In this document: positions 23,825-51,335 of the stretch, one piece after another
How the letters are laid out: every line of letters starts with the position of its first letter
Numbering within the stretch: the first letter of the stretch is position 1
Assembly: GCA_017883205.1 (NCBI GenBank)
Contig: JADGNZ010000033.1
Location: 3,595 to 67,594, forward strand
Direction of reading: 5' to 3'
DNA: 64,000 nucleotides
From: Thermoanaerobaculia bacterium
Lineage (GTDB): Bacteria; Acidobacteriota; Thermoanaerobaculia; Gp7-AA8
The notes under the pieces: model-generated
What the model was told of the DNA's origin: nothing
The model's database searches: none
Seen by the model: only the letters and a program-made list of their open reading frames with translations
Position numbers and translations under genes: made by a program

Positions 23825-25969
23825 ATGAAAGCCCTCCTCCTCGCCGTCACGCTTGCCAATCCCATTCTCTTCGTGACGCAGGTGCCGGTTCCTGGCGACT
23901 TCACCACCGTTGCGTCGACGTTTGGCAACCATCTGGCCGCGGTGGCGGAGGCGCCGCGTGGGGGGGATCTTTGGATCCGGTATCCCGATGGGACGACGAA
24001 GAACCTCACGCGGGCGGCGGGGTTCGGGAACGGCGGGATGCAGTCCGCGGCGTCGATCGCCGTGCGCGAGCCGTCGGTGCACTGGAGCGGGACGAAGGCT
24101 CTCTTCAGCATGGTCATCGGGGCGCCTTCGCAGCAGTATGTCTGGGAGACCTACTACTGGCAGATTTACGAGATCACAGGACTCGGCGAGAACGAGACGC
24201 CGGTCATCCGCAAGATCCCCAATCAGCCGGCGAGCTACAACAACGTCAGTCCGTTCTATGGCACCGACGACCGCATCCTCTTTACGTCCGACCGCCCCCG
24301 CAGCGGCGAACGGCATCTCTACCCGCAGCTCGATGAGTACGAAGAGGCGCCGACCGTCACCGGACTCTGGAGCCTCGATCCCGTGGCCGGCGATCTGCGG
24401 ATGCTCGACCACACGCCGTCGGGGCTCTTCACTCCGTCGATCGACAGCTTCGGCCGTGTGATCTTCACGCGATGGGATCACCTGCAGCGCGACCAGCAGG
24501 CCGACACCGATGCGACGGAAGGTGGCTCGTATGGGACGTTCGACTACGCGGACGAATCAGCGAGCGCGGCGCGTCTCGATCAGCGCGTGGAGATCTTTCC
24601 CGAGCCGCGCAGCAGCCGGACCGATCTTCTCGCCGGCACCAACCTCGAGGGGAACAGCATCAACCACTTCTTTCCGTGGGAGATCAATGAGGATGGGACA
24701 TCCGAGGAGACGGTGAACCATGTGGGGCGCCACGAGCTCTTCGGGTACTTCAACCGGAGCATGAACGACAGCGGGCTTTCGGAGTTCAATGGCGACGTTA
24801 ATCGGGCAAACCAGAACATCGTCGACAGCCTTTTCCAGTTGCACGAGGATCCGACTCGGCCGGGCGTCTACTATGGCGTCGATGCGCCTGAGTTCCAGAC
24901 CCACGCCTCGGGACAGATCGTCCGCTTCGCCGCGGAGCCGTCGCGAACGGCGGACAACATCGCCATCACGTACATCACCCCTCGCTCGACGCGCGACGTC
25001 GCGCAGGGCACGCCGGCGGCCGACGCGTCGGGGCACTATCGCGATCCGCTGCCTCTCGCGGACGGGACGTTCCTCGCGGTGCATACGAGCGAGTTGCGCG
25101 GGGACAACAACGACGGCTCGCGCGCGGCGCCGACGTCGCGATACGCATTCCGCATCCGGACGATGACGCCTCAGGGCGGCGTCTACGTGCCCGGACAGGC
25201 TCTGACTCAGGGCATCCAGGGAAGCGTGTCGTACTTCGATCCCGACGTATTAGTGACTTGGTCGGGCGAGATGTGGGAGCTGAGTCCGGTGGAGGTGCGG
25301 GCGAGGCAGCGGCCGGCTCGGCGGACGACGCTGATCGAGGAGCCGGAAGCGAAGATCTTCCGCGAGGAGAACGTCGACCTCGCCGCGTTTCGCGCGAACC
25401 TGCAGGCGCGCAATCTCGCGCTGATCGTCAGCCGCAACGTGACCGCGCGCGATGGGGCGGACAAACAGCAACCCTACAACCTTCACGTCACCGGCAGCTC
25501 GACGCAGAAGGTGGAGGGGAGCAGCAAGCTATTCGACATCGCTCACCTCCAACTCTTCCAGGCCGACCAGCTCCGCGGCCTCGGCGGCACCGCATCGCCG
25601 CGCGACGGGCGCCGCGTACTCGCGCGCGTGATGCACGACCCCGCAGTGAAGAACGCGCCGACCTCGGGCCCGGCTGGCAGCGTGCAGATCGCCGCCGACG
25701 GATCGATCGCCGCGTTCGTCCCCGCGCATCGCGCCATGAGCTGGCAACTGACGGACGCCGCGGGAACGCCGGTCGTGCGCGAGCGCTACTGGCTGACGTT
25801 CCAGCCCGGCGAGGTCCGCGTCTGCAGCGCCTGCCACGCTGTCAACTCCCACGATCAGCTCGGCGCCTCCGCCCCGACGAATTCCCCCGAGGCGCTGCGA
25901 ACGCTGCTGCGAACGTGGAAGGCATCGCAGACGACAACGCCATCACGACGCCGATCGGCAGGGAAGTGA
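23825..25969 (+). CDS. Secreted HzsA-related beta-propeller protein with C-terminal CxxCH
   Basis: Short signal peptide; VREPSVHWSGTKALFSM, YNNVSPFY, ILFTSDRP, GRVIFTRWD; DGSIAAFVPA...WLTFQPGEVRVCSACH; tail SRRRSAGK. Confidence 0.7.
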   Translation: MKALLLAVTLANPILFVTQVPVPGDFTTVASTFGNHLAAVAEAPRGGDLWIRYPDGTTKNLTRAAGFGNGGMQSAASIAVREPSVHWSGTKALFSMVIGAPSQQYVWETYYWQIYEITGLGENETPVIRKIPNQPASYNNVSPFYGTDDRILFTSDRPRSGERHLYPQLDEYEEAPTVTGLWSLDPVAGDLRMLDHTPSGLFTPSIDSFGRVIFTRWDHLQRDQQADTDATEGGSYGTFDYADESASAARLDQRVEIFPEPRSSRTDLLAGTNLEGNSINHFFPWEINEDGTSEETVNHVGRHELFGYFNRSMNDSGLSEFNGDVNRANQNIVDSLFQLHEDPTRPGVYYGVDAPEFQTHASGQIVRFAAEPSRTADNIAITYITPRSTRDVAQGTPAADASGHYRDPLPLADGTFLAVHTSELRGDNNDGSRAAPTSRYAFRIRTMTPQGGVYVPGQALTQGIQGSVSYFDPDVLVTWSGEMWELSPVEVRARQRPARRTTLIEEPEAKIFREENVDLAAFRANLQARNLALIVSRNVTARDGADKQQPYNLHVTGSSTQKVEGSSKLFDIAHLQLFQADQLRGLGGTASPRDGRRVLARVMHDPAVKNAPTSGPAGSVQIAADGSIAAFVPAHRAMSWQLTDAAGTPVVRERYWLTFQPGEVRVCSACHAVNSHDQLGASAPTNSPEALRTLLRTWKASQTTTPSRRRSAGK

Positions 25970-26183
25970 TGTTGGGGAACTGATCGGGATCGAACCGATT
26001 ACGCTCTGAGCGCGATCTGCGCGGCTGTGGGTCAATTTGGAAAACCGATCACCACAGAGGCACAAAGGTCACAGAGACACCTCCGCGTTCTCTGCGTCTC
26101 TGTGGTTGTCCTTGCTTTGGCGACACGATTAAGCCGTTACGTATTTCGTGCCCTCGGCAGATTACAATCGGCCAGGAGCACCG

Positions 26184-27800
26184 ATGATCTCGCTCACGCG
26201 CGCAACCTTCCCCGCGATCCTGCTGTTGGTACTCGTGACCTCACCGCTCACGGCGGCGACGCGCACCTGGAGTGGCGCCGTGAGCGACCGTTGGAGCGAC
26301 CTTCAGAATTGGGATGGGAGCGGGCCCCTTGCCGGCGACGATCTGGTCTTTCCCCATCTGAGCGGGGGTGGGGGGGGCACTACGAACGACCTCCCTCCCG
26401 GAACGATGTTCCATTCGATCACGCTCAATGGCTTCGGCTACCGGTTCGGCGGAAACGGAATCGTCCTCGGCGCAGGTGGACTCATCCTCCACAACCCTTT
26501 CCTCGCCTCGCTGATCCACACCGATTTGAAGTTCGCCAGCATTACGCTCGGGGAGTCGCAGACCTGGAGCGGGCCTGCCGGTGAATACACCCACCTCGGA
26601 CCGCTGAACCTCAACGGCAAGACATTGACGATCACGAATTTCGTCCGCCCGGAATTCGACTCGATCAGCGGGACGGGCGCCATCATCGAGAATAATCCGA
26701 ATGGTCTCGTGAGCAGCGCCAGCTCGACCTATCTCGGCACGGTAACGGTCGATTCCGGCTTGTTCCAGATCAGTGGGACGGCAGGCGACGTCCAGGTCAC
26801 CGGTCACGGTTTCGGCGGCGACGACCAGGCGAATCAGGCGAACGCGACGCTCGGACTGGCCGGTGCCAACGTCGCCAATGTGACGGTGAACGGCAGCGGC
26901 GCGCTCACTCTTGATTCCTATCCGGGAACATCGTATGCCGGCAGTCTTGTCTTCGCGCCCGCGGCCGGAGATCCCGCGTGGTTCGTCCTCGCGGACGGTC
27001 CGCTTCCGGTAGCCTGCAACGTCGCCGGCAACGTGGCACTCGGCAACGCGCTGCTCGTTGTCGGTCCCCACTCCGCGTTCACGCTCATCCACAGTCAGGG
27101 TGCCGGTCCGGTCGGCGGTACGTTTCTTGGTTTGCCGGAGGGAGCGATTTTCGGTAACGGGATGTGGGCTCGCATCTCCTATACCGGTGGTGCCGGGAAT
27201 GACGTGACTCTCACGCCGGTGAGCACGGCCGTCACCGGCACCACGACGACGATTACGTCATCCGCAAATCCATCTGCGCCAGGACAGGTCGTCACGTTCA
27301 CGGCAGCCGTGACTTCGGCCTCGGGCACGCCGGCGGGCGAGGTTCGCTTCTACGACGGAGGCCTCCTTCTCGGCACGTCCGTGCTGAGCGCATCGGGTCG
27401 TGCCGCCTTGGCCACGTCGTTCGCGGCAGGATCGCACCTCGTCACGGCGGCATATCTCGGCGCGGACACCGTGGCAACCAGTCAGGCAGGCGTCCGGCAG
27501 GCCGCCTGCGACCCGCCGATCCTGACCCAACAGCCGGCATCGCAGACGATCGCTTCAGGGCAGCGGATGACGCTCATGGTTCAAACGAGCGCCACGCCAC
27601 CGTTCTCGCTCCAGTGGTACCAGGGATTGTCGGGCGACACGTCGACGCCAATCTTCGGCGCGATCTCGCAGACGTTCACGCCGCCTGCGCTGACGCGGAG
27701 CACGTCGTTCTGGGTGCAGCTCACCAGTGTCTGCGGCAACGTGCAAAGCGCCACAGCGACGATCACCGTCCAGTCGAGGCGGCGAACCGCCGGCCACTGA
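26184..27800 (+). CDS. Secreted protein: autotransporter-passenger-like repeats plus Ig-like domains
   Basis: Signal peptide, TRTWSG...WSDLQNW, ISYTGGAGNDVTL, Big_3-like (SSANPSAPGQVVTFTA), Ig (QQPASQTI...QWYQG); tail SRRRTAGH; RBS aggag. Confidence 0.75.
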   Translation: MISLTRATFPAILLLVLVTSPLTAATRTWSGAVSDRWSDLQNWDGSGPLAGDDLVFPHLSGGGGGTTNDLPPGTMFHSITLNGFGYRFGGNGIVLGAGGLILHNPFLASLIHTDLKFASITLGESQTWSGPAGEYTHLGPLNLNGKTLTITNFVRPEFDSISGTGAIIENNPNGLVSSASSTYLGTVTVDSGLFQISGTAGDVQVTGHGFGGDDQANQANATLGLAGANVANVTVNGSGALTLDSYPGTSYAGSLVFAPAAGDPAWFVLADGPLPVACNVAGNVALGNALLVVGPHSAFTLIHSQGAGPVGGTFLGLPEGAIFGNGMWARISYTGGAGNDVTLTPVSTAVTGTTTTITSSANPSAPGQVVTFTAAVTSASGTPAGEVRFYDGGLLLGTSVLSASGRAALATSFAAGSHLVTAAYLGADTVATSQAGVRQAACDPPILTQQPASQTIASGQRMTLMVQTSATPPFSLQWYQGLSGDTSTPIFGAISQTFTPPALTRSTSFWVQLTSVCGNVQSATATITVQSRRRTAGH

Positions 27801-27813
27801 TCTGCAAAGGCTT

Positions 27814-27875: not shown

Positions 27876-27914
27876 CATGAACCTTCCTCTCGATATTCGA
27901 GTCTTCAGTCTCGA

Positions 27915-28150: not shown

Positions 28151-28155
28151 ACATT

Positions 28156-31406: not shown

Positions 31407-34004
31407 CTAGTGTCCCGCGGCGTGCCCGCGCGATTGGCCTACAGTAACGGTTACCGTGCCAAAAGCGCTGTTGCCGCTGAAGTCGGTCGTCTGGATCGTG
31501 AGCGTGTAGACCCGGTCGGTTCCGCCGGCGCGCTCGGCGCGAATATCAGCGGTCAGCGGTCCGGTGATATTCCAATCGGGCGACGTGTTGCCGTCGCCAC
31601 TTCCGTTGACCGGTTCACTCGACGAGATCGACACGATATGCGAGACCGGATTCGGGTCGACGAGATCGGATGCGATCACGGTGACTGTGACTGCAACCAT
31701 CTTGTGATTCGGCGGCCAGAGACTGTTCGGCGACGCCGTGATCGAGGCGATCGTCGGCGGTGTGGTATCACGCACGATGACCGAGAACGAGCCGTGTGCC
31801 GTGTTGTTGTGCGTGTCGGTCGCGGTGCACTGTACGGTCGTGGTGCCGAGCGGGAAGGTCGAGCCCGATGGGGGCGTGCAGGTCACCGGTCTCGACCCGT
31901 CGACGATGTCGGTCGATGTTGCGGTGTACGTTACAGCCGCGCCGCTCGTGCTCGTTGCCTCCTTCGTGATCGTTGCCGGGAGCGTGAGGACTGGCGGTGT
32001 GGTGTCGCGGACCGTGACCGTGAACGATCCGGTGGCGGTGTTGCTGTGAAGATCGGTTGCGCTGCATTGAACGGTCGTTGTGCCCAACGGGAACGTTGAG
32101 CCGGATGCCGGTGTGCACGTCACCGGTCGTGCTCCGTCGACGAGGTCGGTGGATGTCGCCGTGTAGGTGGCTGTTGCGCCGGACGCGCTCGTCGCTTCCG
32201 TCGTGATGTTTGCCGGCAGAGCGAGAGCAGGTGGTGTGGTATCGCGAACGGTGACCGTAAACGAGCCGTTCGCCGTGTTGCTGTGCGCGTCGCTAGCGCT
32301 GCACTGAACGGTTGTCGTTCCGATCGGGAATGTCGATCCGGACGCAGGGCTGCACGTCACCGCGACCGGTCCGTCGACGCCGTCGTTTGCCGACGCCGTG
32401 TACGTAACGACGGCGCCGGAAGCGCTGGTTGCTTCGGCCGTGATGTTTGCCGGCAGAGCGAGAGTCGGCGGGGTGGTATCACGAACGGTGACCGTAAACG
32501 AGCCGTTCGCCGTATTGCCGTGCGCGTCGGTTGCACTGCACTGGACGGTCGTCGTTCCGATCGGGAATGTCGATCCGGACGCAGGGCTGCACGTCACCGC
32601 GACCGGTCCGTCGACGTTGTCGTTCGCCGATGCCGTGTACGTAACGACGGCGCCGGAAGCGCTGGTTGCTTCGGCGGTGATATTCGACGGCAGCGTGAGG
32701 ACTGGCGGCGTGACGTCGGCTGACACGATGACCATGAAGGTTCCGCTGGAAGTGTTGAATCTGCTATCCGCCGAAACGCACGTCACGACCGTCGTTCCGA
32801 TCGGGAACGTGGAGCCGGAAGGCGGATTACAGAATACGGGCGTGCTTCCATCGACGAGATCGGCGGCTGTCGCAGCGAACGTGACGACCGCGCCGGCGCC
32901 GCTCGTGGCGCCCGCGTTGATCGTGCCGGGGAGCGTCAACACCGGCGCGGTCGTATCGACGACCGTGACGTGAAAGCTATCGCTTGACGTCCCACCCGCT
33001 GACGTCGCCGAGCAGGAAACGGTCGTCGTCCCAAGGGGGAAGGTCGCGCCCGAGGCGGGGCTGCAACTGATCGTGGCGCTACCGGTCGCGGTGACGCTGA
33101 ACGAGACGGCTGCGCCCGCCGCACTGGTTGCCTCGGCCGTGATGTCGTTCGGGACGGTGATCACGGGTGCGGAGGCGCCGCCCGTAACGGTGATTTTGAA
33201 CGAACCGGCAGAGCGGTTGGCGTGCGAGTCGGTGGCTGTGCACTGGACCGTCGTCGTTCCGACGGGGAACGTCGAGCCCGATGCCGGACTGCAGAAGATG
33301 ATGGGACTCGGATCGGTATTGTCGGTCGCGGTGACGGCATAGGTCACGACCGGGTTGCTGGTGATGATCGTTGCCGGAAGCTGCAGGACCGGAGGCACGG
33401 TGTCCGTGACATTGATCTCGAAGGTTCCTGACGTCGTCCCAAAGGCGTCAGTCGCCGAACAGCTGACCGTCGTGATGCCGACGGGATAAAGAGCGCCGGA
33501 ATTGTGATCGCAGTTGACCGGTACTGGCTGCGAGTCAGCGAAGCTGATGGCACTCACGGTGAAGGTGACGACGGAGCCGGAGGCGCTGGTCGCCTCGGCG
33601 GTGATGGACTCCGGAAGGGACAGCAGCGGCGGCTGCGATGAGCCGTTCGGGATCACATCGAAAGAGCCGGGACCGATCGAGCGCGTGCCGCCGCTGTCGA
33701 TCGCCTCGACGGTCACCGATACCGTGCCGGGAACCGAGAGAACGAAATCAGGGATGCTCACGAAGAGGATTGTTCCGTCGGGGGCGCCGGGACTGGCCCC
33801 AACGGTGGTCGTGCCGAAAGGTCCCGACAGGACGACCTGAGTATCGACGTCTCCCACCAGTCCGGTGCCATCGATCTGGATGAATTGTTCGATGTCGCCT
33901 TGATTGAATGCCGACGGCGTGATCGAAGTGATCGAATCAGCGAAAGCCGCAGGTACGAAAACGAGAATACACAGCAGCAGCAGGCAAAAGGCCGCAGTTT
34001 TCAT
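31407..34004 (-). CDS. Secreted HYR-domain repeat protein
   Basis: Signal peptide; about 8 repeats of DTTPPVLTLP-x-ITAEATS...CSPASGSTFPIGTTTVQCSATD (79-aa period); C-terminal SLWPPNHKM...AERAG domain; tail SRGHAAGH. Confidence 0.9.
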   Translation of the reverse strand: MKTAAFCLLLLCILVFVPAAFADSITSITPSAFNQGDIEQFIQIDGTGLVGDVDTQVVLSGPFGTTTVGASPGAPDGTILFVSIPDFVLSVPGTVSVTVEAIDSGGTRSIGPGSFDVIPNGSSQPPLLSLPESITAEATSASGSVVTFTVSAISFADSQPVPVNCDHNSGALYPVGITTVSCSATDAFGTTSGTFEINVTDTVPPVLQLPATIITSNPVVTYAVTATDNTDPSPIIFCSPASGSTFPVGTTTVQCTATDSHANRSAGSFKITVTGGASAPVITVPNDITAEATSAAGAAVSFSVTATGSATISCSPASGATFPLGTTTVSCSATSAGGTSSDSFHVTVVDTTAPVLTLPGTINAGATSGAGAVVTFAATAADLVDGSTPVFCNPPSGSTFPIGTTVVTCVSADSRFNTSSGTFMVIVSADVTPPVLTLPSNITAEATSASGAVVTYTASANDNVDGPVAVTCSPASGSTFPIGTTTVQCSATDAHGNTANGSFTVTVRDTTPPTLALPANITAEATSASGAVVTYTASANDGVDGPVAVTCSPASGSTFPIGTTTVQCSASDAHSNTANGSFTVTVRDTTPPALALPANITTEATSASGATATYTATSTDLVDGARPVTCTPASGSTFPLGTTTVQCSATDLHSNTATGSFTVTVRDTTPPVLTLPATITKEATSTSGAAVTYTATSTDIVDGSRPVTCTPPSGSTFPLGTTTVQCTATDTHNNTAHGSFSVIVRDTTPPTIASITASPNSLWPPNHKMVAVTVTVIASDLVDPNPVSHIVSISSSEPVNGSGDGNTSPDWNITGPLTADIRAERAGGTDRVYTLTIQTTDFSGNSAFGTVTVTVGQSRGHAAGH

Positions 34005-34071: not shown

Positions 34072-35301
34072 TTATTCGTAACGCAGGGCTTCGATCGGGT
34101 GCAGCGAGGCGGCTTTCCAGGCGGGATAGGAGCCGAAGCCGATGCCGATCATCGAGCAGACCAGAAGGCCGGTGCCTGCCCAGAGCCACGGGAAAACCAT
34201 GCTCATGTCGAAGGCAAGGGCGACTCCGTTGCCGCCGAGGACACCGGCCGCGATTCCGGCCAATCCGCCCAGCTCTGAGAGAAGAACGGCCTCGATGAGG
34301 AACTGTTTGATGATGTCGAACTTTCGCGCGCCGATCGCTTTGCGCACGCCGATCTCGCGCGTCCGCTCCGTGACGCTGACGAGCATGATGTTCATGATGC
34401 CGATGCCGGCGGCCAGCAGGGCGATGACGCTGACGACAAACGCGCCGACGCGCACCGTGTCGGCCACCTGTGCGAAAGCCGTGAGCAATGTGTCGTTCGA
34501 GTAGATTTCGAAGTCGTTGTCCTGCCCGAGCTTCAGACCGCGCGCAGTTCGCATCGCCCCGATCGCTTTATCGAGAGTGTCGTTGTAAGTGGCCTGCGAC
34601 GTCGACTGGATGGCGATGTTGACCGTGCGGTTCTCGTGGCCGAAGTCGGAAAAGAATTTCGTGAGCGGCACGAGCACGAGGTCATCCTGACTGTTCCCGA
34701 ACGAGGAGCCCTTCTCATCCAGCACGCCGATGATCGTGTACGGCTTGGAGTTGACCTTGACCGTCTTGCCAAGAGCTGACTGGCTCGGAAAGAGCTTCTT
34801 CTGGATGCTCGCGCCGACGACGGTCACGTTGCGGCCGAGCTCCACATCGTCGGGCGAGATGTTGCGGCCGTAGGCGATGGCGTAGCTGTTGGCGGTGAGG
34901 AAGTACTCGTTGGTGCCGACGACGGTGCGTCCCTGCAAGGTCACCGGGCCGTTGCTGATCGGCCGGCCGCCGTCGAACACCTTCAGGGCGATGGCGTTCG
35001 CCTCGCCACCCATGAGGCGGATGAACTCGTTCGCGTTGTCGAGCGAGATGTCCTTCCGGTTCCTGTACTTCTCCTCGGCGTTTCCTCCGTTGTTGATGAC
35101 CGGATACTTGGCAAACTGGAAGATGTTACTGCCGAGGAAGCTGAGGCCCGTTTCGATGGAGCCCTGGATGGCGCTGAGCGCCGTCATGACGCCGATGACG
35201 GAAAAGACGCCGATGGCCACGCCGAGCATCGTCAGTGCGGAGCGAAGCTTGTTCGTCCGCAACGAACCAAGGGCCATTCGAAAGATTTCGGTGAAGAACA
35301 T
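34072..35301 (-). CDS. ABC transporter permease (MacB/FtsX family)
   Basis: LRSALTMLGVAIGV, GIGIMNIMLVSVTERTREIGVRKAIGA, PIEALRYE. Confidence 0.93.
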   Translation of the reverse strand: MFFTEIFRMALGSLRTNKLRSALTMLGVAIGVFSVIGVMTALSAIQGSIETGLSFLGSNIFQFAKYPVINNGGNAEEKYRNRKDISLDNANEFIRLMGGEANAIALKVFDGGRPISNGPVTLQGRTVVGTNEYFLTANSYAIAYGRNISPDDVELGRNVTVVGASIQKKLFPSQSALGKTVKVNSKPYTIIGVLDEKGSSFGNSQDDLVLVPLTKFFSDFGHENRTVNIAIQSTSQATYNDTLDKAIGAMRTARGLKLGQDNDFEIYSNDTLLTAFAQVADTVRVGAFVVSVIALLAAGIGIMNIMLVSVTERTREIGVRKAIGARKFDIIKQFLIEAVLLSELGGLAGIAAGVLGGNGVALAFDMSMVFPWLWAGTGLLVCSMIGIGFGSYPAWKAASLHPIEALRYE

Positions 35302-35378
35302 GGTGTCAAAGCAGAGGGCAGAGTGCAGAAGGCAGAAGTGAAAAGGAACTTCTGCTTTCTGACTTCAGACCTCTGACC

Positions 35379-36659
35379 TCACTCGTACCTCAACGCTTCA
35401 ATGGGATCCAACCGCGACGCCGACAACGCCGGCGCGAAGCCGGAGAGGATGCCGGTGAGCGTCGAGACGATCATCCCGATGATCACGAGTCCGGCGGAGA
35501 ACTGCATCGGGAATGATGGGAAGGCTGCCGCCACGCCGGAGGTCATCAGGAACGAGAGCGCCAATCCCGCGCCTCCGCCGATCAGGCAGATGCAGACGGC
35601 CTCGACGAGGAACTGCAACAGAATCGTTCGCCGCCGCGCGCCAACGGCCTTGCGCGTACCGATCTCGCGCGTCCGTTCCTTCACGCTCACATAGGTAATG
35701 TTCATGATGCCGATGGCGCCGACGAACAGCGCCAGGCTGGTGACGAACAGGCCGGCGATGGCGATGCCCGCTTTGACCGGCTCGATCGTGCTGCGCAGAC
35801 CTTCCTGCGCGTTGATCTCGAAGTCGTCCTTCTGCTCCGGCCGCAGACCGCGGACGCGGCGCATGTCGCCGGTCAGCTCATCGCGCGCCTGGGCAAGATG
35901 TTCTTTGTCTTTGACCTTGACGCGGATCGATGTATCGAGGCGCGAGCTGAAGGTCTTCATGAATGCGGACATGGGGACGACGACCTGGGTGTCGAAGCTG
36001 AAGAGGCCGAGGAAGGTTCCCTGTTTGCCGTAGACGCCGATGACGCGGAAAGGACTGCCGCCGATCATCACCGTCTTATCGAGGGCGGACTGCTTCGGGA
36101 AGAGGGCGTCGGCCACGTCGTAGCCGAGCACGCAGACGTTGCGCGCTCCGCGGGACTCGATGGCGGTGATGAAGCGCCCCTCTTTGAACGTGGCCGTCGA
36201 CGTCACGAGAAACTCTTCGGTCGTTCCCTGTGTGAAGACGTTCTGCACTTCGTTGTCGCCGTACTTGACGCTGCGATTCGTGTTCAGCGTCGGTACGGCG
36301 GTGATGAGGTTCGAGTTCGGCGTCGCGGCGATGAGACGCTTCAGGGTATCGGCGTACTGCGGCTCGATCCTGCGGCGGTTGCGATAGTTCCACCAGTCAT
36401 CGACGTTGTGCCACGGCCACTTCTCGACGTAAAGGATGTCGTCGCCGATGACGGCAAGGCTGCGCTCGAATCCGATCTCGATGCCGCCGATGGCCGATCC
36501 CATCAGCGTGACGGCGATGATGCCGATGATCACGCCGAGCGCCGTGAGAATCGAGCGCATCTTGTGCGCCCGGATCTGAGTAAACGCAATCCGGAAGCTC
36601 TCCAGCAACTCGATGCGGAAATCGCGGAAAAGGAGTCGGTCGATCAGGCGGTTGCTCAT
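35379..36659 (-). CDS. ABC transporter permease (MacB/FtsX family)
   Basis: MRSILTALGVIIG, IGIMNITYVSVKERTREIGTRKAVGA, DPIEALRYE. Confidence 0.93.
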   Translation of the reverse strand: MSNRLIDRLLFRDFRIELLESFRIAFTQIRAHKMRSILTALGVIIGIIAVTLMGSAIGGIEIGFERSLAVIGDDILYVEKWPWHNVDDWWNYRNRRRIEPQYADTLKRLIAATPNSNLITAVPTLNTNRSVKYGDNEVQNVFTQGTTEEFLVTSTATFKEGRFITAIESRGARNVCVLGYDVADALFPKQSALDKTVMIGGSPFRVIGVYGKQGTFLGLFSFDTQVVVPMSAFMKTFSSRLDTSIRVKVKDKEHLAQARDELTGDMRRVRGLRPEQKDDFEINAQEGLRSTIEPVKAGIAIAGLFVTSLALFVGAIGIMNITYVSVKERTREIGTRKAVGARRRTILLQFLVEAVCICLIGGGAGLALSFLMTSGVAAAFPSFPMQFSAGLVIIGMIVSTLTGILSGFAPALSASRLDPIEALRYE

Positions 36660-36699
36660 GTGTGTCTCGCAGTCTCGCTGTTACTGGTGTTTGTGGAAG

Positions 36700-36800
36700 C
36701 AGAGATCAGAGACAGAAGAGATCAGAGACAAGAGATTCCGCACCTTGGCTGGTCTCTGGTCTCTGATCTCTAGTCTCTGATCTCCTGATCTCTGATCTCT
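36700..36800. repeat. AGAGATC/GATCTCT heptamer inverted repeat pair
   Basis: agagatcagagacagaagagatcagaga ... tctctggtctctgatctctagtctctgatctc; related tracts at 35310-35378, 51415-51512 and 53495-53618. Confidence 0.75.
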
Positions 36801-36804
36801 CGAA

Positions 36805-38151
36805 TTAACCCTTCCCCTGCTTCTCGATCTCCACCTTCGCTCCATCCTTAAGCTTGCGGCTGATGGCGGTGTAGCTGCCGGAGACGACTTCGTCGCCGAT
36901 CTTGATGCCGTTCTTGATCTCGATGAAAGTCGTGTCGGCGATTCCGGTCTCAACCTTCTGCTGGCGCACCGTGTCGCCGTTCTTGATGAAGACGACGCGC
37001 ACGAGCTTCTCGCGCTGCTCGCGCTCTTTCTGTTTCTCGAGCGTCTGGTTGCTCACTTCGGCTTTGTTGTCGTCGTCTTTGGAGACGCTTTGCGAAGTCT
37101 GTTTCTCGCGCTCCTCGGGCGACAGTTTGCTGTCCGTGCTGCGGACGGTGACGCTCTGGATCGGCACGACGACCGCGTTTTGCACCGTGTCGGTCTCGAT
37201 GTCAGCGGTCGTGCTCATGCCGGGACGCAGATGCACCGATGGATCGTTGACGCGGATCTTCACTTCGAAATTCGTCACCTGCTCCTGCGTGCCGGCGTTG
37301 TTCGTGGTTGCGGTGCTGGCGATCTCGCGGACGACGCCGGCGATCTTGCGGTCGGGATAGGCGTCGACGCTGATGCGCGCCGTGTCGCCGACTTTCACGT
37401 TGACGATGTCATTCTCGTTGACGTTGACGCGCGCCTCCATGCTGGTGAGGTCGGCGATGCGCATGACTTCCGTGCCTGCGAACTGACTGGTGCCGACGAC
37501 GCGCTCGCCGAGGCGGCTGGAGAGAGAGCTGATGGAGCCGTCGCTCGGCGCGACGATGGTCGTTTTCGATAACGCATCATTGATCTGTTTGAGTGCGCCC
37601 TCGGAGCGCTGGATGTCGAACTGCGACGCATTGAGCGCCGACTGTGCGATCTCATAGCTCGTCTGAGCAGCCTTCCGGTCGGACTCGGGGATCAGCTGCG
37701 ATTCGAAAAGATGCTGCGATCGCTGATAGTCGGCCTGCGCTTTGGCGAGCTGCGCTTTTTGCGTCGCGCTCGCGGCGCGGGCGCTGCTCAGCGCCGCCTG
37801 CTGCTCTTCAACCTGTGCCCGGTACGCGTCGGGCTTGATGCGCAGCAGAAGGTCGCCCTTATGCACGATCTGCCCTTCTTTGACCGGCAGGTCGATGATC
37901 TCTCCCGAGACTTCGGGTGAGATTTTCACTTCGATCTCCGGCTGGATCTTGCCGGTTGCAGTAACGAGCTGCGTGATCGTTTTCCGGAACGCCTTGTCCG
38001 TCGTGACGGGGATCGGCTTCTCGCGCTTTTTCGACATGACCCCTGCAACGGCGGCGATGGCGACGACGAGAATGATGCCGATGATCCAGTAGAGCTTCTT
38101 GCGCGAGCGTTTCGGCTTCGGCTTGGTGAGTGACGATAGGACAGCGCTCAT
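36805..38151 (-). CDS. Efflux periplasmic adaptor subunit (MacA-like)
   Basis: N-terminal TM, ATGKIQPEIEVKISPEVSG, VKEGQIVHKGDLL, TTIVAPSDG, LRPGMS, VVVPIQSV. Confidence 0.9.
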   Translation of the reverse strand: MSAVLSSLTKPKPKRSRKKLYWIIGIILVVAIAAVAGVMSKKREKPIPVTTDKAFRKTITQLVTATGKIQPEIEVKISPEVSGEIIDLPVKEGQIVHKGDLLLRIKPDAYRAQVEEQQAALSSARAASATQKAQLAKAQADYQRSQHLFESQLIPESDRKAAQTSYEIAQSALNASQFDIQRSEGALKQINDALSKTTIVAPSDGSISSLSSRLGERVVGTSQFAGTEVMRIADLTSMEARVNVNENDIVNVKVGDTARISVDAYPDRKIAGVVREIASTATTNNAGTQEQVTNFEVKIRVNDPSVHLRPGMSTTADIETDTVQNAVVVPIQSVTVRSTDSKLSPEEREKQTSQSVSKDDDNKAEVSNQTLEKQKEREQREKLVRVVFIKNGDTVRQQKVETGIADTTFIEIKNGIKIGDEVVSGSYTAISRKLKDGAKVEIEKQGKG

Positions 38152-38364: not shown

Positions 38365-40008
38365 CTAGCGCACTGCCCGTTTCCGCGCGGGCACGCCTCC
38401 CACCGCGAAGAGGTGGCCGCTGGATTGCGCGTAGATGCGTCCCTGCGCGTCGATGGCAACGGGCGTGTAGGCGGCGCCGAGCGGTGCGGAGAGGGAGAAG
38501 CGGTCGAGGGGGATGCCGCCCTGGGCGATCGCGTAAAGGATTCCATCTTCGCCGTTTGCGTAGACGGTGCCCTGCGCATCGATGGCCGTGGCGTTGACGC
38601 ACCACTCGAAACCAAACTTCTGGTCGGCGCAACTGCCGCCCCGGCAGATCGTCCGCGATGGATTGCGGTATTGCCACTCCACCTGCAACTGCGGGCTGAG
38701 CTGCGTCACGAAATGACCCGGAGCCGTCCGCAGCAGAGGATCGCCGTAGAAGTTCTCCTTCGTCACCAGCGAGTAGGTTCCGTCGTGCTGCCAGACCGCC
38801 GGCGTCGTGTCCCAGCCGAATGGATAGTCGCCGAGGTACGCGCCGCTGGCGGAGAAATGCATCAGGTGGCCGTTCCGGTCGTTGTAGTAGGTGTACGAGC
38901 CGTAGACGATGGATCCGTCGGGGAGAACGACCGGCGAGGCGGTCGAGCTGTCATCGACGCGGCCCGACCCCGGCAGATTGTCGTCGGGGTCGACTCCGGC
39001 ATGCGCGCCCGCGCTGCAGTTGGTGGGCGGGAGCAGGACGCCGCAGCCGTCGTGAAAGCGCTCGCGTAACGACTGGCTCCATTTCGGTGTGAGGTCGGGA
39101 TTGATGGCGACGAGATAGCCCCATCGGTCGTTGAAGTGCGTGCGGCTGATCATGTAGATCGTCCCGTCCGAGGCGACCGCCGGGGCGACGTTGATGCCCG
39201 GCCGCTGCGCGCCGCAGGTTCGTTGCGGCGCGACTGCGTTCGGCGATGGCGGATGCTGCGTCGAGCCGAACACAAACTCCCAGGTGCAAAGGGCGTTCGG
39301 TGCCGGAGCGTTAGTCACGAGCGGCGCGAACGGCACGGCGGTGGCGGCGCCTGCCGGCGTCACGCGAACGAGCCAGGAGGCGAGGATGTCGCCGAACCAC
39401 GGTGCGTTCTGTTGTAGCCGGAACACGCCATAGATAATGTTCCCCGAGGAATCCGCGGTCGGTGGACCGGAGACGAACGTCATGACATCGAGCGATCCGA
39501 AGGGATTGATGCGGCGGATGATCTCGCCGGTGGTCCGGTCGAGTTGCAGGAGCGTCCCGCCCATGGCCGGAGCGTAGATGGAATCGTTGGCGAGGACCGG
39601 CTGCATGGCCGGCTCCCAGATCCCGGCCCCGTCCGGAATCGGGTACCAGTCGCTCGGCTGCGCCCATTTCTCGACGAGCTGTCCATTCTCCCAATGCAGG
39701 CGATGCACGCTCCACCTCGGGATCCCTTGGAACGGTCCGATAAAGATCAATTCTTTGTACGACATGAAGACGTCGTCGCCGTCGAGAAGCGGTCCGGCAT
39801 AGTGAACGAAAAGGTCGCCCGATGTTGGATCGATCTCATCGGGAACGAGGGGGTCGTGCACGACGTCCGCGAGGGTGCGCACGAGCGGCTGTCCGACGAC
39901 CGAGGTGTTTCCGGTGTGCCTCTGGTTGGCCCCAAATTGGGACCATTGGGCCAGCGCGGAAGCCGCCGCCGCAAACTGGATCGTCAGCGCAAATAAACGT
40001 CTGAGCAT
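38365..40008 (-). CDS. Secreted beta-propeller (PQQ-like/BamB-like) hypothetical protein
   Basis: Signal peptide then QWSQFGANQRHTG; APAVASDGTIY, SPVVLPDGSI, TAIDAQGTVY, TPVAIDAQGRIY blades; tail ARKRAVR. Confidence 0.7.
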   Translation of the reverse strand: MLRRLFALTIQFAAAASALAQWSQFGANQRHTGNTSVVGQPLVRTLADVVHDPLVPDEIDPTSGDLFVHYAGPLLDGDDVFMSYKELIFIGPFQGIPRWSVHRLHWENGQLVEKWAQPSDWYPIPDGAGIWEPAMQPVLANDSIYAPAMGGTLLQLDRTTGEIIRRINPFGSLDVMTFVSGPPTADSSGNIIYGVFRLQQNAPWFGDILASWLVRVTPAGAATAVPFAPLVTNAPAPNALCTWEFVFGSTQHPPSPNAVAPQRTCGAQRPGINVAPAVASDGTIYMISRTHFNDRWGYLVAINPDLTPKWSQSLRERFHDGCGVLLPPTNCSAGAHAGVDPDDNLPGSGRVDDSSTASPVVLPDGSIVYGSYTYYNDRNGHLMHFSASGAYLGDYPFGWDTTPAVWQHDGTYSLVTKENFYGDPLLRTAPGHFVTQLSPQLQVEWQYRNPSRTICRGGSCADQKFGFEWCVNATAIDAQGTVYANGEDGILYAIAQGGIPLDRFSLSAPLGAAYTPVAIDAQGRIYAQSSGHLFAVGGVPARKRAVR

Positions 40009-40191: not shown

Positions 40192-40644
40192 ATGAAGAAA
40201 CACATCATTCACGCAGTTGCCGCTCTCTTTCTCGTGATGGTGGCCGCGCCGCTCTTCGCCGTGCAGCGGAACATCGTCGACGAGGTCATCCGTATGACGA
40301 GGGCCGGTGTCGCTGAGGACGCCATCCTCGAATATGTCGACAAAACGGACATTCGGATCGTCGTTACCGGCGATGACGTCATCGCCATGACGGAAGCGAA
40401 CGTGCCGAAGGCGGTTATCAAGGAAGTGGTCGATAACTCTGCAGGCAGCGGCCGCAACTACCGCGACCGCAGCTTCGTCTCGCCGCGCGTCGTCGTCGCG
40501 CCGTATTACTACGATCCTTACTATTACTACGATCCGTTCTGGTACCGCCCGAGCCTCTACCTCGGCTTTGGCTTCGGCGGGTTCTACGGCGGCGGTTTCC
40601 GCGGAGGCCACTTCGGTGGTCACGGCGGCGGTCGTCATCACTAA
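40192..40644 (+). CDS. Hypothetical secreted protein with Tyr/Pro- and Gly-rich tail
   Basis: RBS agggag, signal peptide, DEVIRMTRAGVAEDAIL, PYYYDPYYYYDPFW, GGFRGGHFGGHGGGRHH. Confidence 0.75.
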   Translation: MKKHIIHAVAALFLVMVAAPLFAVQRNIVDEVIRMTRAGVAEDAILEYVDKTDIRIVVTGDDVIAMTEANVPKAVIKEVVDNSAGSGRNYRDRSFVSPRVVVAPYYYDPYYYYDPFWYRPSLYLGFGFGGFYGGGFRGGHFGGHGGGRHH

Positions 40645-41150: not shown

Positions 41151-42704
41151 GTGTCGATCCGATGGCTTGCGCTGCTCGTTCTCGCCGCGGCGAGCGCGCA
41201 GGCCGCTGAGCCGGTGCGCATCGGGCGCATCACCATCGACGCAGTGCCCGTCTTCAGTGGTGCCGAGGCTGCGCATGGTCGGTTTTATGGGCTCATGAAC
41301 GTGCTTCATGTGCAGACTCGAGTCGCTCTGCTGCGCCGGTTTCTGCTCTTCCGCGAAGGGGATCCGTACGATCCTGCACTGATCGAGGAGACGGAGCGCG
41401 CACTGCGACTCTTCGACTTTCTCGAGAGTGCTTCGGTCACCGCATCGGCTCCGCATGACGGCGTCGTCGACGTCGCCGTGGTCACTCACGATGCGTTGAC
41501 GACGGCCATCAACGCGGACTTTTCGAATGAGGGAGGGATCGCCGCGTATTCGGCCGACGTCACGCAGAAGGATCTCTTCGGATCCGGCAGTTCGCTCGAT
41601 CTGCATACGGAGCATGGGATCGAACGGAGCGGGACATCGGCCGAACTGACCGATCCGGCGCTCTTCGGACCGTACTGGAATCTCGACACGCTCTACGCGA
41701 AAAACTCGGATGGCAGCGAAGAGAAGGTGGCGATCGACCGGCCGCTTTACTCCTACCGGACTCCCTGGACCGCGAGTGCACTTTTCGATCGACTGCAACG
41801 CAACGAACGGATCTTCGCGCTCGGTGAGGTGGCCGCGCGGTTCCGGCACGAACATCGCGAGCTTGCGCTCTCCCGTTCGAAGGTGCTGCACGCCGACCGG
41901 GATGGCTCTTCGAGCATCGTCGCTGCGATCGATCTGCTCGATGATTCGTTCGCCGTGCTGCCGGAGCGCACGGGCGACGTCATTCCGCGCGCGCGTCACT
42001 TCCGCTTCGTCGAAGCCGGCTACGAGAGCACCGGTTTCCGTTTCGTCAAGCTCGATTACGTCGACCGCGACATCCGCGAGCAGGATTTCAACCTCGGCCA
42101 CTACGCGACGATTCGCGCGGCAATCTCGCCAGCGCAATCGAGCGATCGTTCCTCGACCTTCCGGCTTCGCGCTGCTGCCGGAGCGGGATACGCGTTCAGC
42201 GAGCGCGCGTTCGTCGTCGGCCAGATCACTGCGTCGACGCGCGCGCCGCGCGACCGCAACACGATGATCGCGCTCGACGGCCGCGCCGTATCCCGTTTCC
42301 AGACGCGCTACCCCCAGGCATTCGTCACTCGAACTCACCTGGATCTGGGCTGGCAGCTCGATCGCGACTTGCAGTTTCTTGCCGACGGTCAGAGCGGGCT
42401 TCGCGCCTATCCCGACTTCGCGTTCGAAGGAAGCAGGCGGCTGATCGTGAATGCGGAACATCGCATCTTTCTCGGGCGCGAGTTGCTCCAGCTTGTCGGC
42501 CCGGGCGTGGCGGTGTTCGCCGATTCCGGACAAGCGGTTGATGGTCCATTCCGAGGGATGAAGAGCGATGCCGGAGCAGGATTGCGCCTCGGCATCTCCC
42601 GCCTCGATGCGCTGATCCGGATCGATTGGGCATACGCGTTCAACGACAGCCCGCGAAGCCGCCGCGGTCCTGTCTGGTCGATCTCGACGTCGCAGGCGTT
42701 TTGA
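41151..42704 (+). CDS. BamA/TamA-like outer-membrane beta-barrel protein with POTRA-like domain
   Basis: Signal peptide, LLFREGDPYD...ETERALR, GLRAYP, LIVNAEHR, FADSG, GAGLRLG, IRIDWAY, C-terminal SQAF. Confidence 0.78.
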   Translation: MSIRWLALLVLAAASAQAAEPVRIGRITIDAVPVFSGAEAAHGRFYGLMNVLHVQTRVALLRRFLLFREGDPYDPALIEETERALRLFDFLESASVTASAPHDGVVDVAVVTHDALTTAINADFSNEGGIAAYSADVTQKDLFGSGSSLDLHTEHGIERSGTSAELTDPALFGPYWNLDTLYAKNSDGSEEKVAIDRPLYSYRTPWTASALFDRLQRNERIFALGEVAARFRHEHRELALSRSKVLHADRDGSSSIVAAIDLLDDSFAVLPERTGDVIPRARHFRFVEAGYESTGFRFVKLDYVDRDIREQDFNLGHYATIRAAISPAQSSDRSSTFRLRAAAGAGYAFSERAFVVGQITASTRAPRDRNTMIALDGRAVSRFQTRYPQAFVTRTHLDLGWQLDRDLQFLADGQSGLRAYPDFAFEGSRRLIVNAEHRIFLGRELLQLVGPGVAVFADSGQAVDGPFRGMKSDAGAGLRLGISRLDALIRIDWAYAFNDSPRSRRGPVWSISTSQAF

Positions 42705-48532: not shown

Positions 48533-48594
48533 TCGCTACACCTTTCTTGCTACACCTTCTTGCTACACCTCTTCCTTCTTTCTTGGAGTGCTCT

Positions 48595-48816: not shown

Positions 48817-48975
48817 AAGGACGTGCGATAGGAGCGTGAGAAGACTGGGCTAACGGCAACGCGCTCTGAAACTTAAAGTCTGTCGACCTCGACGTTGAAG
48901 TCCGTGACTTCAAAGAAGGAGTAACGTGAGAGCGGCCCGGCGCTTGCTCTCCTCCATCCACCGAAGGGAAAACAA

Positions 48976-49203: not shown

Positions 49204-49379
49204 AGGCCGGTCAACTCAGCTTCCAGCATCGGTCGCGTATCCTTTTGCCGCCTGATCCGTCACACAATCGATCAGTGGGAACCACCAATCGATCGAGAAA
49301 TTTGTCTCCGGTGATGCCGGTTCGGAACGGGAGCAAATTTCGCGGTCTCAAGTCACTTTCAGGGGCAAAAACCGATCCG

Positions 49380-51335
49380 ATGAGCGTGCACTCTCTGAAG
49401 CGCAGTCTTCTCTTCTCTTTTCTGGCAGTCCTCGCCGCGAACGGAGCGTTCGCGGTTTCACCGTCCGCGCGTTACGAAACGCGCATGGTTTGGGACCCGG
49501 CCATCCACCGTGCCGTGTTGTTCGGCGGGCTGACCGCGATCGATTCCGGCACCAAGCTCGCCTATGAGCTGGGCGATACCTGGCAATGGACGGGTAACCG
49601 CTGGATCGCGACGTACCCCGCTCACAGCCCGACGGCGCGCGCCGGTCATTTGATGATCTTCGACTCCGCTCGCAACCGCGTCGTCATCTTCGGCGGCCGG
49701 CATGGGAAGACGAACCTCAACGATACGTGGTCCTATGACGGCAACGATTGGACGCAGCTCTTCCCTCCGACCTCACCGTCGGTTCGCGAGCTCTCGGCCC
49801 AGGCCTACGACTCCGCACGCGACCGCATCGTCATGTTCGGCGGGTATTTGCAGACGTACAGCGCAGATGGAATCACGCTGACGGAGACGCCGCTGCACGA
49901 CACCTGGGAGTTCGACGGCACGACGTGGAAGCAGATCCTCAGCGACGGTCCGAATGTCATCAGGCCAGCCCTCGAATACGACCCCATCCGCAAACAGACC
50001 ATCATGATCGCGGCCGAGCCCACCAAGAGCACCACGCAGATGTACGCGTGGGACCCCGTGGCCGCGAAATGGAATCAGTTGGCCCCGGCCCTTCTGCCGG
50101 CATGCGCCCTCGGCGGCGAGATGACCTGGCAGAGCTCTGACAACACCATTCTCTACACCGGCGCCGTTTGCACCGATTCTGCAGCCACCGAAGATACGTA
50201 CGAATGGGACGGCACGAACTGGACGAAGATCGCTCTAACCCTTTTCGCGGGCCGCTACTTCGGCTCCGCTCTCACCTTCGATCCCGATCATCAGCTGGCC
50301 GTCTTATTTGGCGGCGCGAACGCCTCCGGCATTCTTAACGGGAGCACCTTCACGTACGCCAACGCGATCTGGTTTCCTGTCTCTGATTCAACGTATCCCG
50401 CGGCCCGGTCGTTATTCGCCTTCACCGCCGATCCAGCCAGAAGCGTCATCGATCTCTACGGTGGTCTGAACGAGTCCACCTCCTTCTTCGATTACTGGAC
50501 CTATCAGAACGGTGTGTTCCGGCTGCAGTCCGGCACCACGGGTCAGCCGACGGACTGCAGCTCACCACTGACGGTATTCGATACCGATCATCAGAAGCTG
50601 GTGATGCTCTGCGATAGCAGTGCGACGTTGGACTTCGACGGTACGACGTGGACAACCTACGATGTTTCGAAGAGCGCGCCGCCGCAACACCGCTTCGGCG
50701 CCCTGGCGTATGACCAGACGCTGAAGAGGACCGTTTTCTTCGGCGGCTATGACGACACCAATTCCGTCTATCTCAACCAGACCTGGACGTTCGATGGAGC
50801 CAGCTGGACTCAGGTGAAAAAGAATCCGGCGCCGTTCCGAACCCTCACCTCGATGTGGTGGGATCCGACACTGAAGAAGACCGTTCTCTATGGTGGCCTC
50901 GGCCGTCTCACCGCCAACGACAGGCTGACCCGCTTCAGCGACATGTGGTCGTTCGACGGAACCGGGTGGCTCGAGATCAAACCGGCCTTGACACCCGGCA
51001 TGCGCTACGGCGCGTCAGTGGTCGTCGATCCGAAGACCGGCCATGCAATCCTCTTCGGCGGAATCCGCGTCGACACCGACGCCAACCTCATTCAGACGCA
51101 GGTCTACGCGGACGACATGTGGGAATGGGATGGCACCACGTGGACGAAAGTGACGTCCAGCATCCTGACGCCGCCCGGACGCGAGAACGCCGGCTTCGCC
51201 GTCGACCCGTATCTCAACCAGTTCATCCTCTTCGGCGGCTACAACGGCACCTATCTTTCCGACGTCTGGATCTTCGGCAACGGCCAGTGGAGGCAGAGCA
51301 CGGAAGTTCTGAACCGGCGCCGGGCGTCGCATTGA
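49380..51335 (+). CDS. Secreted Kelch-repeat protein
   Basis: Signal peptide; repeated LFGG...DTW-x-(W/F)DG-x-x-W blades (about 12); tail NRRRASH. Confidence 0.85.
   Translation: MSVHSLKRSLLFSFLAVLAANGAFAVSPSARYETRMVWDPAIHRAVLFGGLTAIDSGTKLAYELGDTWQWTGNRWIATYPAHSPTARAGHLMIFDSARNRVVIFGGRHGKTNLNDTWSYDGNDWTQLFPPTSPSVRELSAQAYDSARDRIVMFGGYLQTYSADGITLTETPLHDTWEFDGTTWKQILSDGPNVIRPALEYDPIRKQTIMIAAEPTKSTTQMYAWDPVAAKWNQLAPALLPACALGGEMTWQSSDNTILYTGAVCTDSAATEDTYEWDGTNWTKIALTLFAGRYFGSALTFDPDHQLAVLFGGANASGILNGSTFTYANAIWFPVSDSTYPAARSLFAFTADPARSVIDLYGGLNESTSFFDYWTYQNGVFRLQSGTTGQPTDCSSPLTVFDTDHQKLVMLCDSSATLDFDGTTWTTYDVSKSAPPQHRFGALAYDQTLKRTVFFGGYDDTNSVYLNQTWTFDGASWTQVKKNPAPFRTLTSMWWDPTLKKTVLYGGLGRLTANDRLTRFSDMWSFDGTGWLEIKPALTPGMRYGASVVVDPKTGHAILFGGIRVDTDANLIQTQVYADDMWEWDGTTWTKVTSSILTPPGRENAGFAVDPYLNQFILFGGYNGTYLSDVWIFGNGQWRQSTEVLNRRRASH

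Follow-up and report, generated by a model that had tools for sequence, protein, structure and literature searches.

Among the C-terminal signals closest to the element described here are the tripartite ones, LPXTG/sortase, PEP-CTERM/exosortase, IPTL-CTERM/XrtH, GlyGly-CTERM/rhombosortase and MYXO-CTERM/myxosortase. Published criteria for such small C-terminal sorting domains include, in the accessible part of the text, a signature motif, a transmembrane segment, a basic cluster and a cognate endopeptidase (10.1101/2023.06.07.544157). We analysed a stretch of 64,000 nucleotides (hereafter 'the window') from the genome of a Thermoanaerobaculia bacterium (Acidobacteriota), in which five genes, those of cargoes 1 to 5 in Table 1, encode exported proteins ending in a short arginine-rich sequence that we call the arginine tail. 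It shares with the tripartite signals, as the available part of their description presents them, the extreme C-terminal position, the arginine cluster, the restriction to a lineage and the occurrence on dozens of unrelated proteins with signal peptides. Across the genome, it is a selected, position-locked C-terminal motif, acting at the protein level, on about 50 exported, unrelated proteins. We think that it probably marks proteins for localisation, an envelope receptor recognising its free C-terminus once the protein has been exported.

A C-terminal arginine tail on exported proteins

The genome, G000 (6.37 Mb assembly, 105 contigs, 63% GC), belongs to a family labelled f1. Its 4896 genes were called with a home-made codon-usage model, a crude and imperfect caller, and 1422 of them were marked signal-peptide-like by a home-made, rule-based predictor that is also crude. 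A regular expression for the core of the tail, R-[RGKH]-[RHK]-[ASTG]-[AVSTG] followed by 0-3 residues and the C-terminus, matched 43 of the 1094 signal-peptide proteins having at most one further hydrophobic segment, 2 of the 328 multi-spanning proteins and 20 of the 3474 proteins without signal peptide, an enrichment on signal-peptide proteins with an odds ratio of 7.1 (Fisher p 8e-14). The same core occurs inside proteins 0.14-0.25 times per 1000 residues, so that about 0.6 C-terminal matches are expected in the group of 1094.

A position-specific scoring matrix (PSSM) anchored on the basic triplet, with a threshold of 12 bits, converged on 56 proteins, 46 with a predicted signal peptide and 10 without. 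With leave-one-out scoring, 50 of the 56 stay at or above 12 bits and 54 at or above 10 bits. When each protein was cut at a random internal point and rescored, five rounds of this control gave 0, 0, 1, 0 and 0 matches, against 56 at the true ends. By eye, about 6-8 of the 10 proteins without a predicted signal peptide either have a Sec or Tat signal that the predictor overlooked or start at the wrong codon: cargo 4 of the window has an obvious signal peptide, one protein has a Tat signal, and several have mis-called starts or signals without a basic residue. Two of these 10 are probable false positives, an iron-sulphur (FeS) subunit with a C-terminal helix and a membrane protein of eight helices.

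Could such tails be an artefact of composition in a genome with 63% GC? Arginine-rich ends do arise by chance: 106 of the 29,188 six-frame open reading frames (ORFs) of at least 100 codons reach the 12-bit threshold, and this number includes about 50 wrong-frame ORFs with a low GC content at third codon positions, that is, some 0.2% of roughly 24,000 non-gene ORFs; a cytoplasmic methylase of the window also has a near-miss tail. The preliminary description of this DNA had named an equal frequency on cytoplasmic proteins, driven by GC bias, as the outcome that would undo its claim. We ran this test and the claim came through it: the tail is found on 46 of the 1422 signal-peptide genes (3.2%), against 10 of the 3474 others (0.29%; odds ratio 11.6, p 1.6e-16), and the GC-driven background lies about fifteen-fold below the rate in signal-peptide genes. 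The number of tails exceeds chance, and, with truncation controls of 0-1 and a tail that is conserved in orthologues at 59-95% identity next to a variable linker, the probability of a compositional artefact is practically negligible.

The 56 tails follow the pattern P-x-P-x-R-[RHGK]-[RH]-[AS]-[AV]-x(0-2)-[H>R>K]-COOH, and the whole tag spans about 8-11 residues. Upstream of the core, P, A or T is preferred at -4 and P at -2 and -1. Position 0 is R in all 56 proteins and position 1 is R or, more rarely, H, G or K; at the third basic position, 46 proteins have R, 9 have H and one has K. The consensus continues with A (rarer S) and then A, V or S: 49 of the 56 have A or S at +3, and 43 have A or V at +4. 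One (17 proteins), two (33) or three (6) residues follow the five-residue core; the scan by its construction places all 56 cores at this distance of 1-3 residues, but the truncation controls give 0-1 match. The chain ends with H in 36 proteins, with R in 11 and with K in 4. The highest hydropathy over 17 residues within the last 45 has a median of 0.76, and only 2 of the 56 proteins reach 1.6, both of them the probable false positives. There is no lipobox in any of the 56 tail proteins. For a cargo of the GSDH type (PF07995), an AlphaFold2 model built from an alignment of 23 orthologues (mean predicted local distance difference test score, pLDDT, 85.8; predicted template modelling score 0.87) places the last strand at residues 364-370, and the tail, residues 375-380, has a pLDDT below 50. 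The tail is thus predicted to be a disordered end directly after the last beta-strand of the final domain.

All six arginine codons are used in the 65 tails matched by the regular expression (CGC 64, CGG 60, CGA 30, AGG 20, CGT 13, AGA 10), the stop codons of these genes are TGA (42), TAG (15) and TAA (8), and their 45 downstream bases have nothing in common. Because the arginine codons and the downstream DNA vary, selection acts on the protein. Intergenic G-run repeats (GGGG-x-GGGG-x-GGGG type; for example at 51336-51380 of the window) and AGAGA/CAGAGA-type repeats are found downstream of many genes, with 280 arrays genome-wide; tail genes are followed by them no more often (2 of 56) than the genes of two comparison sets (27 of 1376 and 33 of 3464).

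Conservation among orthologues also argues for a selected protein motif. In cargo 1, a tail of the form [RK]-[RK]-R-[AS]-[AV]-[GR]-[KR] is present in 118 of the 120 best homologues (69-95% identity), those with a name being proteins of Thermoanaerobaculia, Acidobacteria or Acidobacteriota metagenome-assembled genomes. Of the two homologues that deviate, one is partial and one ends differently. Statistics were computed on the 117 homologues parsed by the regular expression, one more (P0010) being clear by eye. The entropy of the tail columns is 0-1.46 bits, against 2.4-2.6 bits in seven linker columns; the linker varies from 5 to 9 residues in length, and the distance from core to end is 7 residues in 94 of the 117. 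At the third basic residue all 117 have R, and none has K. The cargo-1 orthologues of the f1 genera g1, g3, g5 and g6 are all tailed (21 loci, including that of G000 and two fragments).

The GSDH-type cargo, encoded on contig C90, was searched in a class sample of 121 Thermoanaerobaculia genomes, 28 of them from f1 (the family tallies given here for GSDH and for the Omp85-like protein discussed below take in the unpublished genomes G030 and G121, on which no single claim depends). The 23 f1 orthologues returned as loci come from genera g1, g5, g22, g25, g27-g31 and g33. The tail is kept in 8 f1 genera. Of the 23 ends, 18 score at least 10 bits, three are visible variants (..MRRHAVR, ..PKLRSVRH and ..PKQRAVRRR) and two are degenerate. 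Over the whole range of 59-95% identity, the tail is conserved among orthologues while the linker drifts.

The tail proteins have a median length of 495 residues and form 36 BLASTP clusters. Pfam matches on 40 tail proteins beyond the window comprise five S8 subtilases, six FG-GAP proteins, DUF11 and Calx-beta proteins, Ig_7 proteins, one of them with an M57 peptidase, and an M23 peptidase, along with enzymes of the GH44, GH42-like, GDSL lipase and GSDH-PKD-PA14 types. Laminin_G_3, YHYH, NHL, beta-helix, TIG + cupredoxin and Lcl_C proteins are also present, and 14 have no match. This cargo set is the usual exoenzyme and adhesin repertoire. Three tail carriers have Tat-like RR signals at their N-terminus, and cargo 1, with its CxxCH motif, needs haem attachment in the periplasm; the tag must therefore act after export and folding.

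Orthologues in related lineages

Tails in relatives were counted in samples of 217-400 kb per genome, using the same ORF-level scan as for G000, where it yields 46 tails, or about 3 per 400 kb. Three tails and a weak one are found in 400 kb of an f1 genome of genus g29 (G099), and one clear tail, on the GSDH orthologue, plus a weak one in 400 kb of a genome from f3, a family of the same order (G026). The 217-kb sample of another f1 genome (G024, genus g7) has none, with about 1.6-1.9 expected, which says nothing either way. No tail was found in the samples from f6 (G077, 400 kb), f14 (G050, 400 kb) and f7 (G031, 259 kb). In the genomes sampled, the tail is restricted to family f1 and at least the neighbouring f3. 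Two leads were given up: recurrent RRA/ARRA words in the G077 sample are FtsX permease ends and unrelated sequences, and back-translated IUPAC DNA patterns, used to map the tail across genomes, gave 14 matches against 30-50 in no-stop controls.

What do the same proteins carry at this position in other families? All seven non-f1 GSDH orthologues returned lack the tail, and five of them end in SLH-type sequences; the Pfam architecture of three orthologues from f6 and f10 is GSDH + TIG + SLH or GSDH + SLH. SLH (PF00395) has no match in G000, 1-2 matches in 10 of the 28 f1 genomes, and at least 53 matches per genome in several f6 genomes (for example G049, G056, G085 and G096), where SLH domains are massively expanded. 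In the f7 genome G031, the cargo-1 orthologue has the end ..IFADGFESGDTTAW and the GSDH orthologue the end ..VFSDGFESGDTTLWN, and five further exported proteins of the 259-kb sample share that end. The seven (loci L028, L029, L034, L040 and L041) define a helix-free tag, (I/V)F(A/S)DGFESG(D/T)T(T/S)(A/L/Q)W(N)-COOH. Another DGFESG-tagged protein of G031 has as its best match in G000 a protein with an IPTL-CTERM-like end, and DGFE is found in the last 30 residues of none of the 4896 G000 proteins.

Farther away, only one of 150 cluster representatives of the cargo-1 family (at most 63% identity) scores as a tail, and this is the end of a type IX secretion system (T9SS) C-terminal domain. Many of the 150 stop right after the domain. 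The nine distant homologues picked as T9SS-like all match Por_Secre_tail, six of them above the gathering score. Since the orthologues of relatives carry SLH, the DGFESG tag or a T9SS C-terminal domain there, the slot held by the arginine tail is one that known envelope-anchoring or sorting modules fill in relatives. Such a pattern would mean that sister lineages exchange one C-terminal address module for another on the same enzymes.

The window and candidate partners

The translations of the five window proteins (Table 1) agree exactly with the tails of the preliminary description, and most of what it said of their carriers holds. Sec-type signal peptides are present on all five, four called by the predictor and that of cargo 4, MLRRLFALTIQFAAAASALAQ, clear by eye. 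Their folds are unrelated, as claimed: the Pfam matches differ and the five proteins form five separate BLASTP clusters, cargo 2 clustering with three further tail proteins located elsewhere in the genome. No transmembrane helix precedes the tail, and genome-wide the 2 of 56 tails that have one are both likely false positives. The variant tail of cargo 3 scores at least 12 bits and that of cargo 4 scores 17.9 bits. NCBIfam sorting-signal models have no match on the five cargoes at E <=0.01.

Table 1. Tailed proteins of the window and neighbouring genes considered in the analysis
Feature	Position in window	Strand	Basis
Cargo 1, exported, HZS_alpha-like, CxxCH motif for haem; tail PSRRRSAGK at 25940-25966	23825..25969	+	translation, Pfam
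Cargo 2, exported, Big_3_5 + Ig_7 domains; tail QSRRRTAGH at 27771-27797	26184..27800	+	translation, Pfam
Cargo 3, exported HYR-repeat protein; variant tail QSRGHAAGH at 31410-31436	31407..34004	-	translation, Pfam
Cargo 4, exported, no Pfam match; tail PARKRAVR at 38368-38391	38365..40008	-	translation, Pfam
Cargo 5, exported Kelch beta-propeller protein; tail LNRRRASH at 51309-51332	49380..51335	+	translation, Pfam
MacA-like adaptor (36805-38151) and MacB_PCD/FtsX permeases (35379-36659, 34072-35301); neighbour only	34072..38151	-	Pfam, NCBIfam
Weakly Omp85/BamA-like outer-membrane protein	41151..42704	+	PDB BamA E 0.005; TIGR03303 E 6e-11, below cut-off
Cytoplasmic C5 DNA methylase ending GRKRAATS; chance look-alike, outside the system	21671..22675	+	Pfam PF00145; 9.5 bits

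Two supporting details of that description fared differently. In the lipoprotein at 19415, the similar GRGRAVVPP spans residues 42-50 of a chain of 159; it is internal, and hence no tail. The methylase, which it had cited as a caveat, does have the end given for it, at a score below the 12-bit threshold that disqualifies it as an instance of the tail. This methylase (PF00145) belongs to a restriction-modification pair at 21671-23637, in which it is followed by a NaeI-type endonuclease (PF09126). Two other loci lie near the cargo genes. A small exported protein at 40192-40644 (150 amino acids, no family match) ends in a Gly/His-rich run, ..FRGGHFGGHGGGRHH. At 51608-56841, a gene fusing RpiB/LacAB with a DeoC-type aldolase is followed by several small genes, whose products we take, by eye, to resemble bacterial microcompartment shell or vertex proteins.

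The preliminary description had put forward the MacAB-like genes and the BamA/TamA-like protein at 41151 as partners of the tail. The arrangement of the genes is suggestive: cargo 4, the MacA-like adaptor, the two permeases and cargo 3 follow one another on the minus strand, in the same direction and with short gaps, and 5 of the 56 tail genes lie within the 28 kb from cargo 1 to cargo 5. This arrangement does not recur elsewhere in the genome, however, and FtsX, MacB or HlyD genes are adjacent to only 3 of the 56 tail genes, a share no higher than the 52 of 1049 among the remaining signal-peptide genes. Nor does the spread of the Omp85-like protein follow that of the tail, as it has homologues in 76 of the 121 class genomes, including families f5-f12 and f17 and thus families without detected tails, and was not found in g29 (0/6) or f3 (0/1), both of which are tailed. 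Recognition of the tail by this pump and/or by the Omp85-like protein is therefore very improbable. The idea of a lineage-specific tag for secretion, cleavage or surface anchoring is upheld in so far as the tail is a lineage-specific, protein-level tag of exported proteins; its proposed partners are not.

Cleavage raises another alternative, in which the tail would be a processing or turnover signal, with R-R-R|A cut by a dibasic protease or trimmed by a carboxypeptidase, and would act as a pro-peptide or a periplasmic degron that governs maturation instead of location. The core of the tail resembles dibasic cleavage sites, at least five cargo proteins are themselves S8 subtilases, and a secreted M20 peptidase is found among the tail genes of the window (Pfam, NCBIfam). 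The M20 association nevertheless comes from the window locus alone: all three cases among the 56 tail genes are located there. It is not obvious how the loss of 3-5 disordered residues would affect such dissimilar folds as Kelch, HYR and GSDH, and the slot in orthologues holds anchoring or sorting modules, not pro-domains. We regard a processing role as quite unlikely.

Other secretion systems of G000 offer further points of reference. Its three secretins belong to PilMNOPQ, a type II secretion system (T2SS)-like cluster and a Tad-like cluster. The possibility that the tail is read by the GspC of a type II system, through a PDZ domain, was considered and set aside, the T2SS-like cluster (contig C23) having no PDZ domain in Pfam. 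Directly upstream of the T2SS-like secretin lies a gene whose exported product, 228 residues long, contains an acidic thrombospondin type 3 repeat (C23:18666-19352; L219:11669-12352). About ten G000 proteins have, by eye, IPTL-CTERM-like tripartite ends composed of (I/V)P(A/T)(L/M), a helix and R/K (examples L208-L215); one of the seven scanned with NCBIfam passes the TIGR04174 cut-off. Exosortase H is encoded twice, by short genes (TIGR04177, 108 and 116 bits, cut-off 86) at C16:100590-101099 and C84:23274-23789 (L204 and L206), each followed by the gene of a membrane protein of 174-200 residues without family match. A class GN sortase (TIGR03784, 213 bits) is encoded beside a dedicated 'marine proteobacterial sortase target' (TIGR03788, 692 bits) at C11:37168-39881 (L216 and L217). 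Both copies of XrtH and the class GN sortase have their own substrates, IPTL-CTERM-like and dedicated, respectively.

A putative address signal and its described counterparts

How might a localisation tag of this kind operate? The cargo crosses the inner membrane by Sec or, for a few proteins, by Tat, as the signal peptides indicate, and would then fold in the periplasm. In the predicted structure, the tail projects as a flexible end from the last beta-strand, where an envelope receptor may bind it and read the free carboxyl end as well. Specific recognition of both tail and free end is suggested by the strict third arginine, by small side chains at +3 and +4, by a basic residue in last place and by a core whose distance to the end is fixed. 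Binding would send the cargo to the outer envelope or the cell surface, or hold it there. Such a placement is what one would expect since orthologues in sister lineages carry SLH, a short tag, an IPTL-CTERM-like end or a T9SS C-terminal domain at the same position, and since the cargo is exoenzyme- or adhesin-like.

Several observations weigh against the localisation tag and its envelope receptor. No receptor, protease or translocon was found for the tail, and the failure to find a candidate receptor is the chief weak point of this reading. Within three genes of 74 tail genes defined by the regular expression (392 neighbours) no family recurs beyond the abundant response regulators. The tail genes are not significantly clustered along the genome (10, where random signal-peptide genes give a mean of 6.6), so that the five of the window are no evidence of a dedicated island. 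The absences from other families refer to samples of 259-400 kb per genome, in each of which the density of G000 would lead one to expect about 2-3 tails. The evidence for localisation comes solely from the modules that orthologues carry at the same position, and SLH modules in diderms may hold proteins on the periplasmic side, so that the swap cannot tell surface display from periplasmic retention. Finally, the motif is short and basic, and its role may be purely electrostatic.

In this last case the arginine cluster would be a non-specific anchor, sticking the cargo to an anionic polymer (lipopolysaccharide (LPS) core phosphates, capsule, phospholipid or extracellular DNA) with no dedicated receptor and so keeping exoenzymes with the cell. 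The tail is indeed strongly basic and exposed, the failure to find a partner gene is as expected, and orthologues elsewhere use SLH, a non-covalent anchor. There is also a precedent in human GBP1, whose C-terminal triple-arginine motif is reported, in the accessible parts of two articles, to mediate binding to Gram-negative bacteria or LPS (PMC5727416, PMC7327485). However, mere charge does not account for a third basic position that is arginine and never lysine in the 117 orthologues of cargo 1, and lysine once, against 46 arginines and 9 histidines, in G000. Nor does it account for A/S in 49 of 56 tails at +3 and A/V in 43 at +4, for an end distance fixed at 1-3 residues, or for the preference for proline upstream. 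A non-specific anchor is, in our opinion, unlikely.

A localisation tag would have practical consequences. Acidobacteriota are among the most abundant soil bacteria, and to our knowledge there is next to no information on how they place their many adhesins and exoenzymes (proteases, glycoside hydrolases, lipases). With some ten residues and about 50 exported carriers per genome, such a tag would provide a cheap predictor of the exoproteome for an uncultured family. If its receptor were found, the tag could serve in surface display or secretion engineering.

How does the arginine tail compare with the tripartite signals? By the criteria in the accessible part of their description (10.1101/2023.06.07.544157), it has the C-terminal position, the many copies, the signal peptides, the unrelated carriers and the basic cluster; it has no separate signature motif, the upstream residues showing only a preference for proline, and no transmembrane segment in 54 of 56 proteins. 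The arginine tail is outside the tripartite class and, having no membrane helix and a whole length of about 8-11 residues, cannot be handled by a membrane-embedded sortase. The preliminary description had judged correctly that it fits none of LPXTG, PEP-CTERM, GlyGly-CTERM and T9SS C-terminal domains, since it has neither a transmembrane segment nor a folded domain, and for the same reasons its recognition cannot work like described sortase-type systems or T9SS.

The T9SS C-terminal domain (Por_Secre_tail, PF18962) holds the same slot on distant cargo-1 homologues and is found on similar exoenzyme and adhesin cargo; it is folded and about 75 residues long, whereas the arginine tail is, from the model, a disordered end of about 10 residues. 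PF18962/TIGR04183 has no match on the five window proteins (E <=0.01) or on 40 further tail proteins (E <=1e-5), and SprA (PF14349, SprA_N) has no match in G000, nor in any of 14 control genomes. SLH anchors hold the slot on the GSDH orthologues of f6 and f10 and, like the proposed role of the tail, act after export and non-covalently. The SLH domain is a folded repeat whose ligand is a secondary cell-wall polymer, and the arginine tail has no such fold. The DGFESG-type tag of G031, (I/V)FADGFESGDTTAW-COOH, comes from the same class, holds the slot on the cargo-1 and GSDH orthologues, is helix-free and has many unrelated exported carriers. Its sequence has nothing of the arginine tail, being acidic and aromatic, and is at least 14 residues long.

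Two other arginine-containing signals may be compared. Type IV secretion substrates have an arginine-rich, unstructured C-terminal translocation signal; they are cytoplasmic and without signal peptide, whereas nearly all carriers of the arginine tail have Sec or Tat signals. The Tat signal itself, an N-terminal S/T-R-R-x-F-L-K with a hydrophobic region, is unlike the tail, which is C-terminal and has no hydrophobic region. We found no Pfam or NCBIfam model describing the arginine tail, nor any published description of it in the full-text literature covered, which consisted partly of titles and opening lines of abstracts within a wider literature.

A further likeness lies outside Bacteria. KDEL/HDEL, the PTS1 signal -SKL and the class I-III PDZ ligands consist of a few unstructured residues, are locked to the free carboxyl end and can be appended to unrelated folds. 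These eukaryotic C-terminal address signals are a working analogy only, as kingdom, compartments and sequences differ from those of the arginine tail; no homologue of their receptors came to light in G000, where no search was aimed at one. It is nonetheless possible, and we suggest it tentatively, that the tail is a bacterial linear address of the KDEL/PTS1 type, about 10 residues long and free of both fold and membrane step, with a dedicated receptor in the periplasm or outer membrane, and one of a set of swappable lineage-specific tags that would include DGFESG, SLH and IPTL-CTERM. If true, this implies an undescribed envelope sorting machinery in Acidobacteriota.

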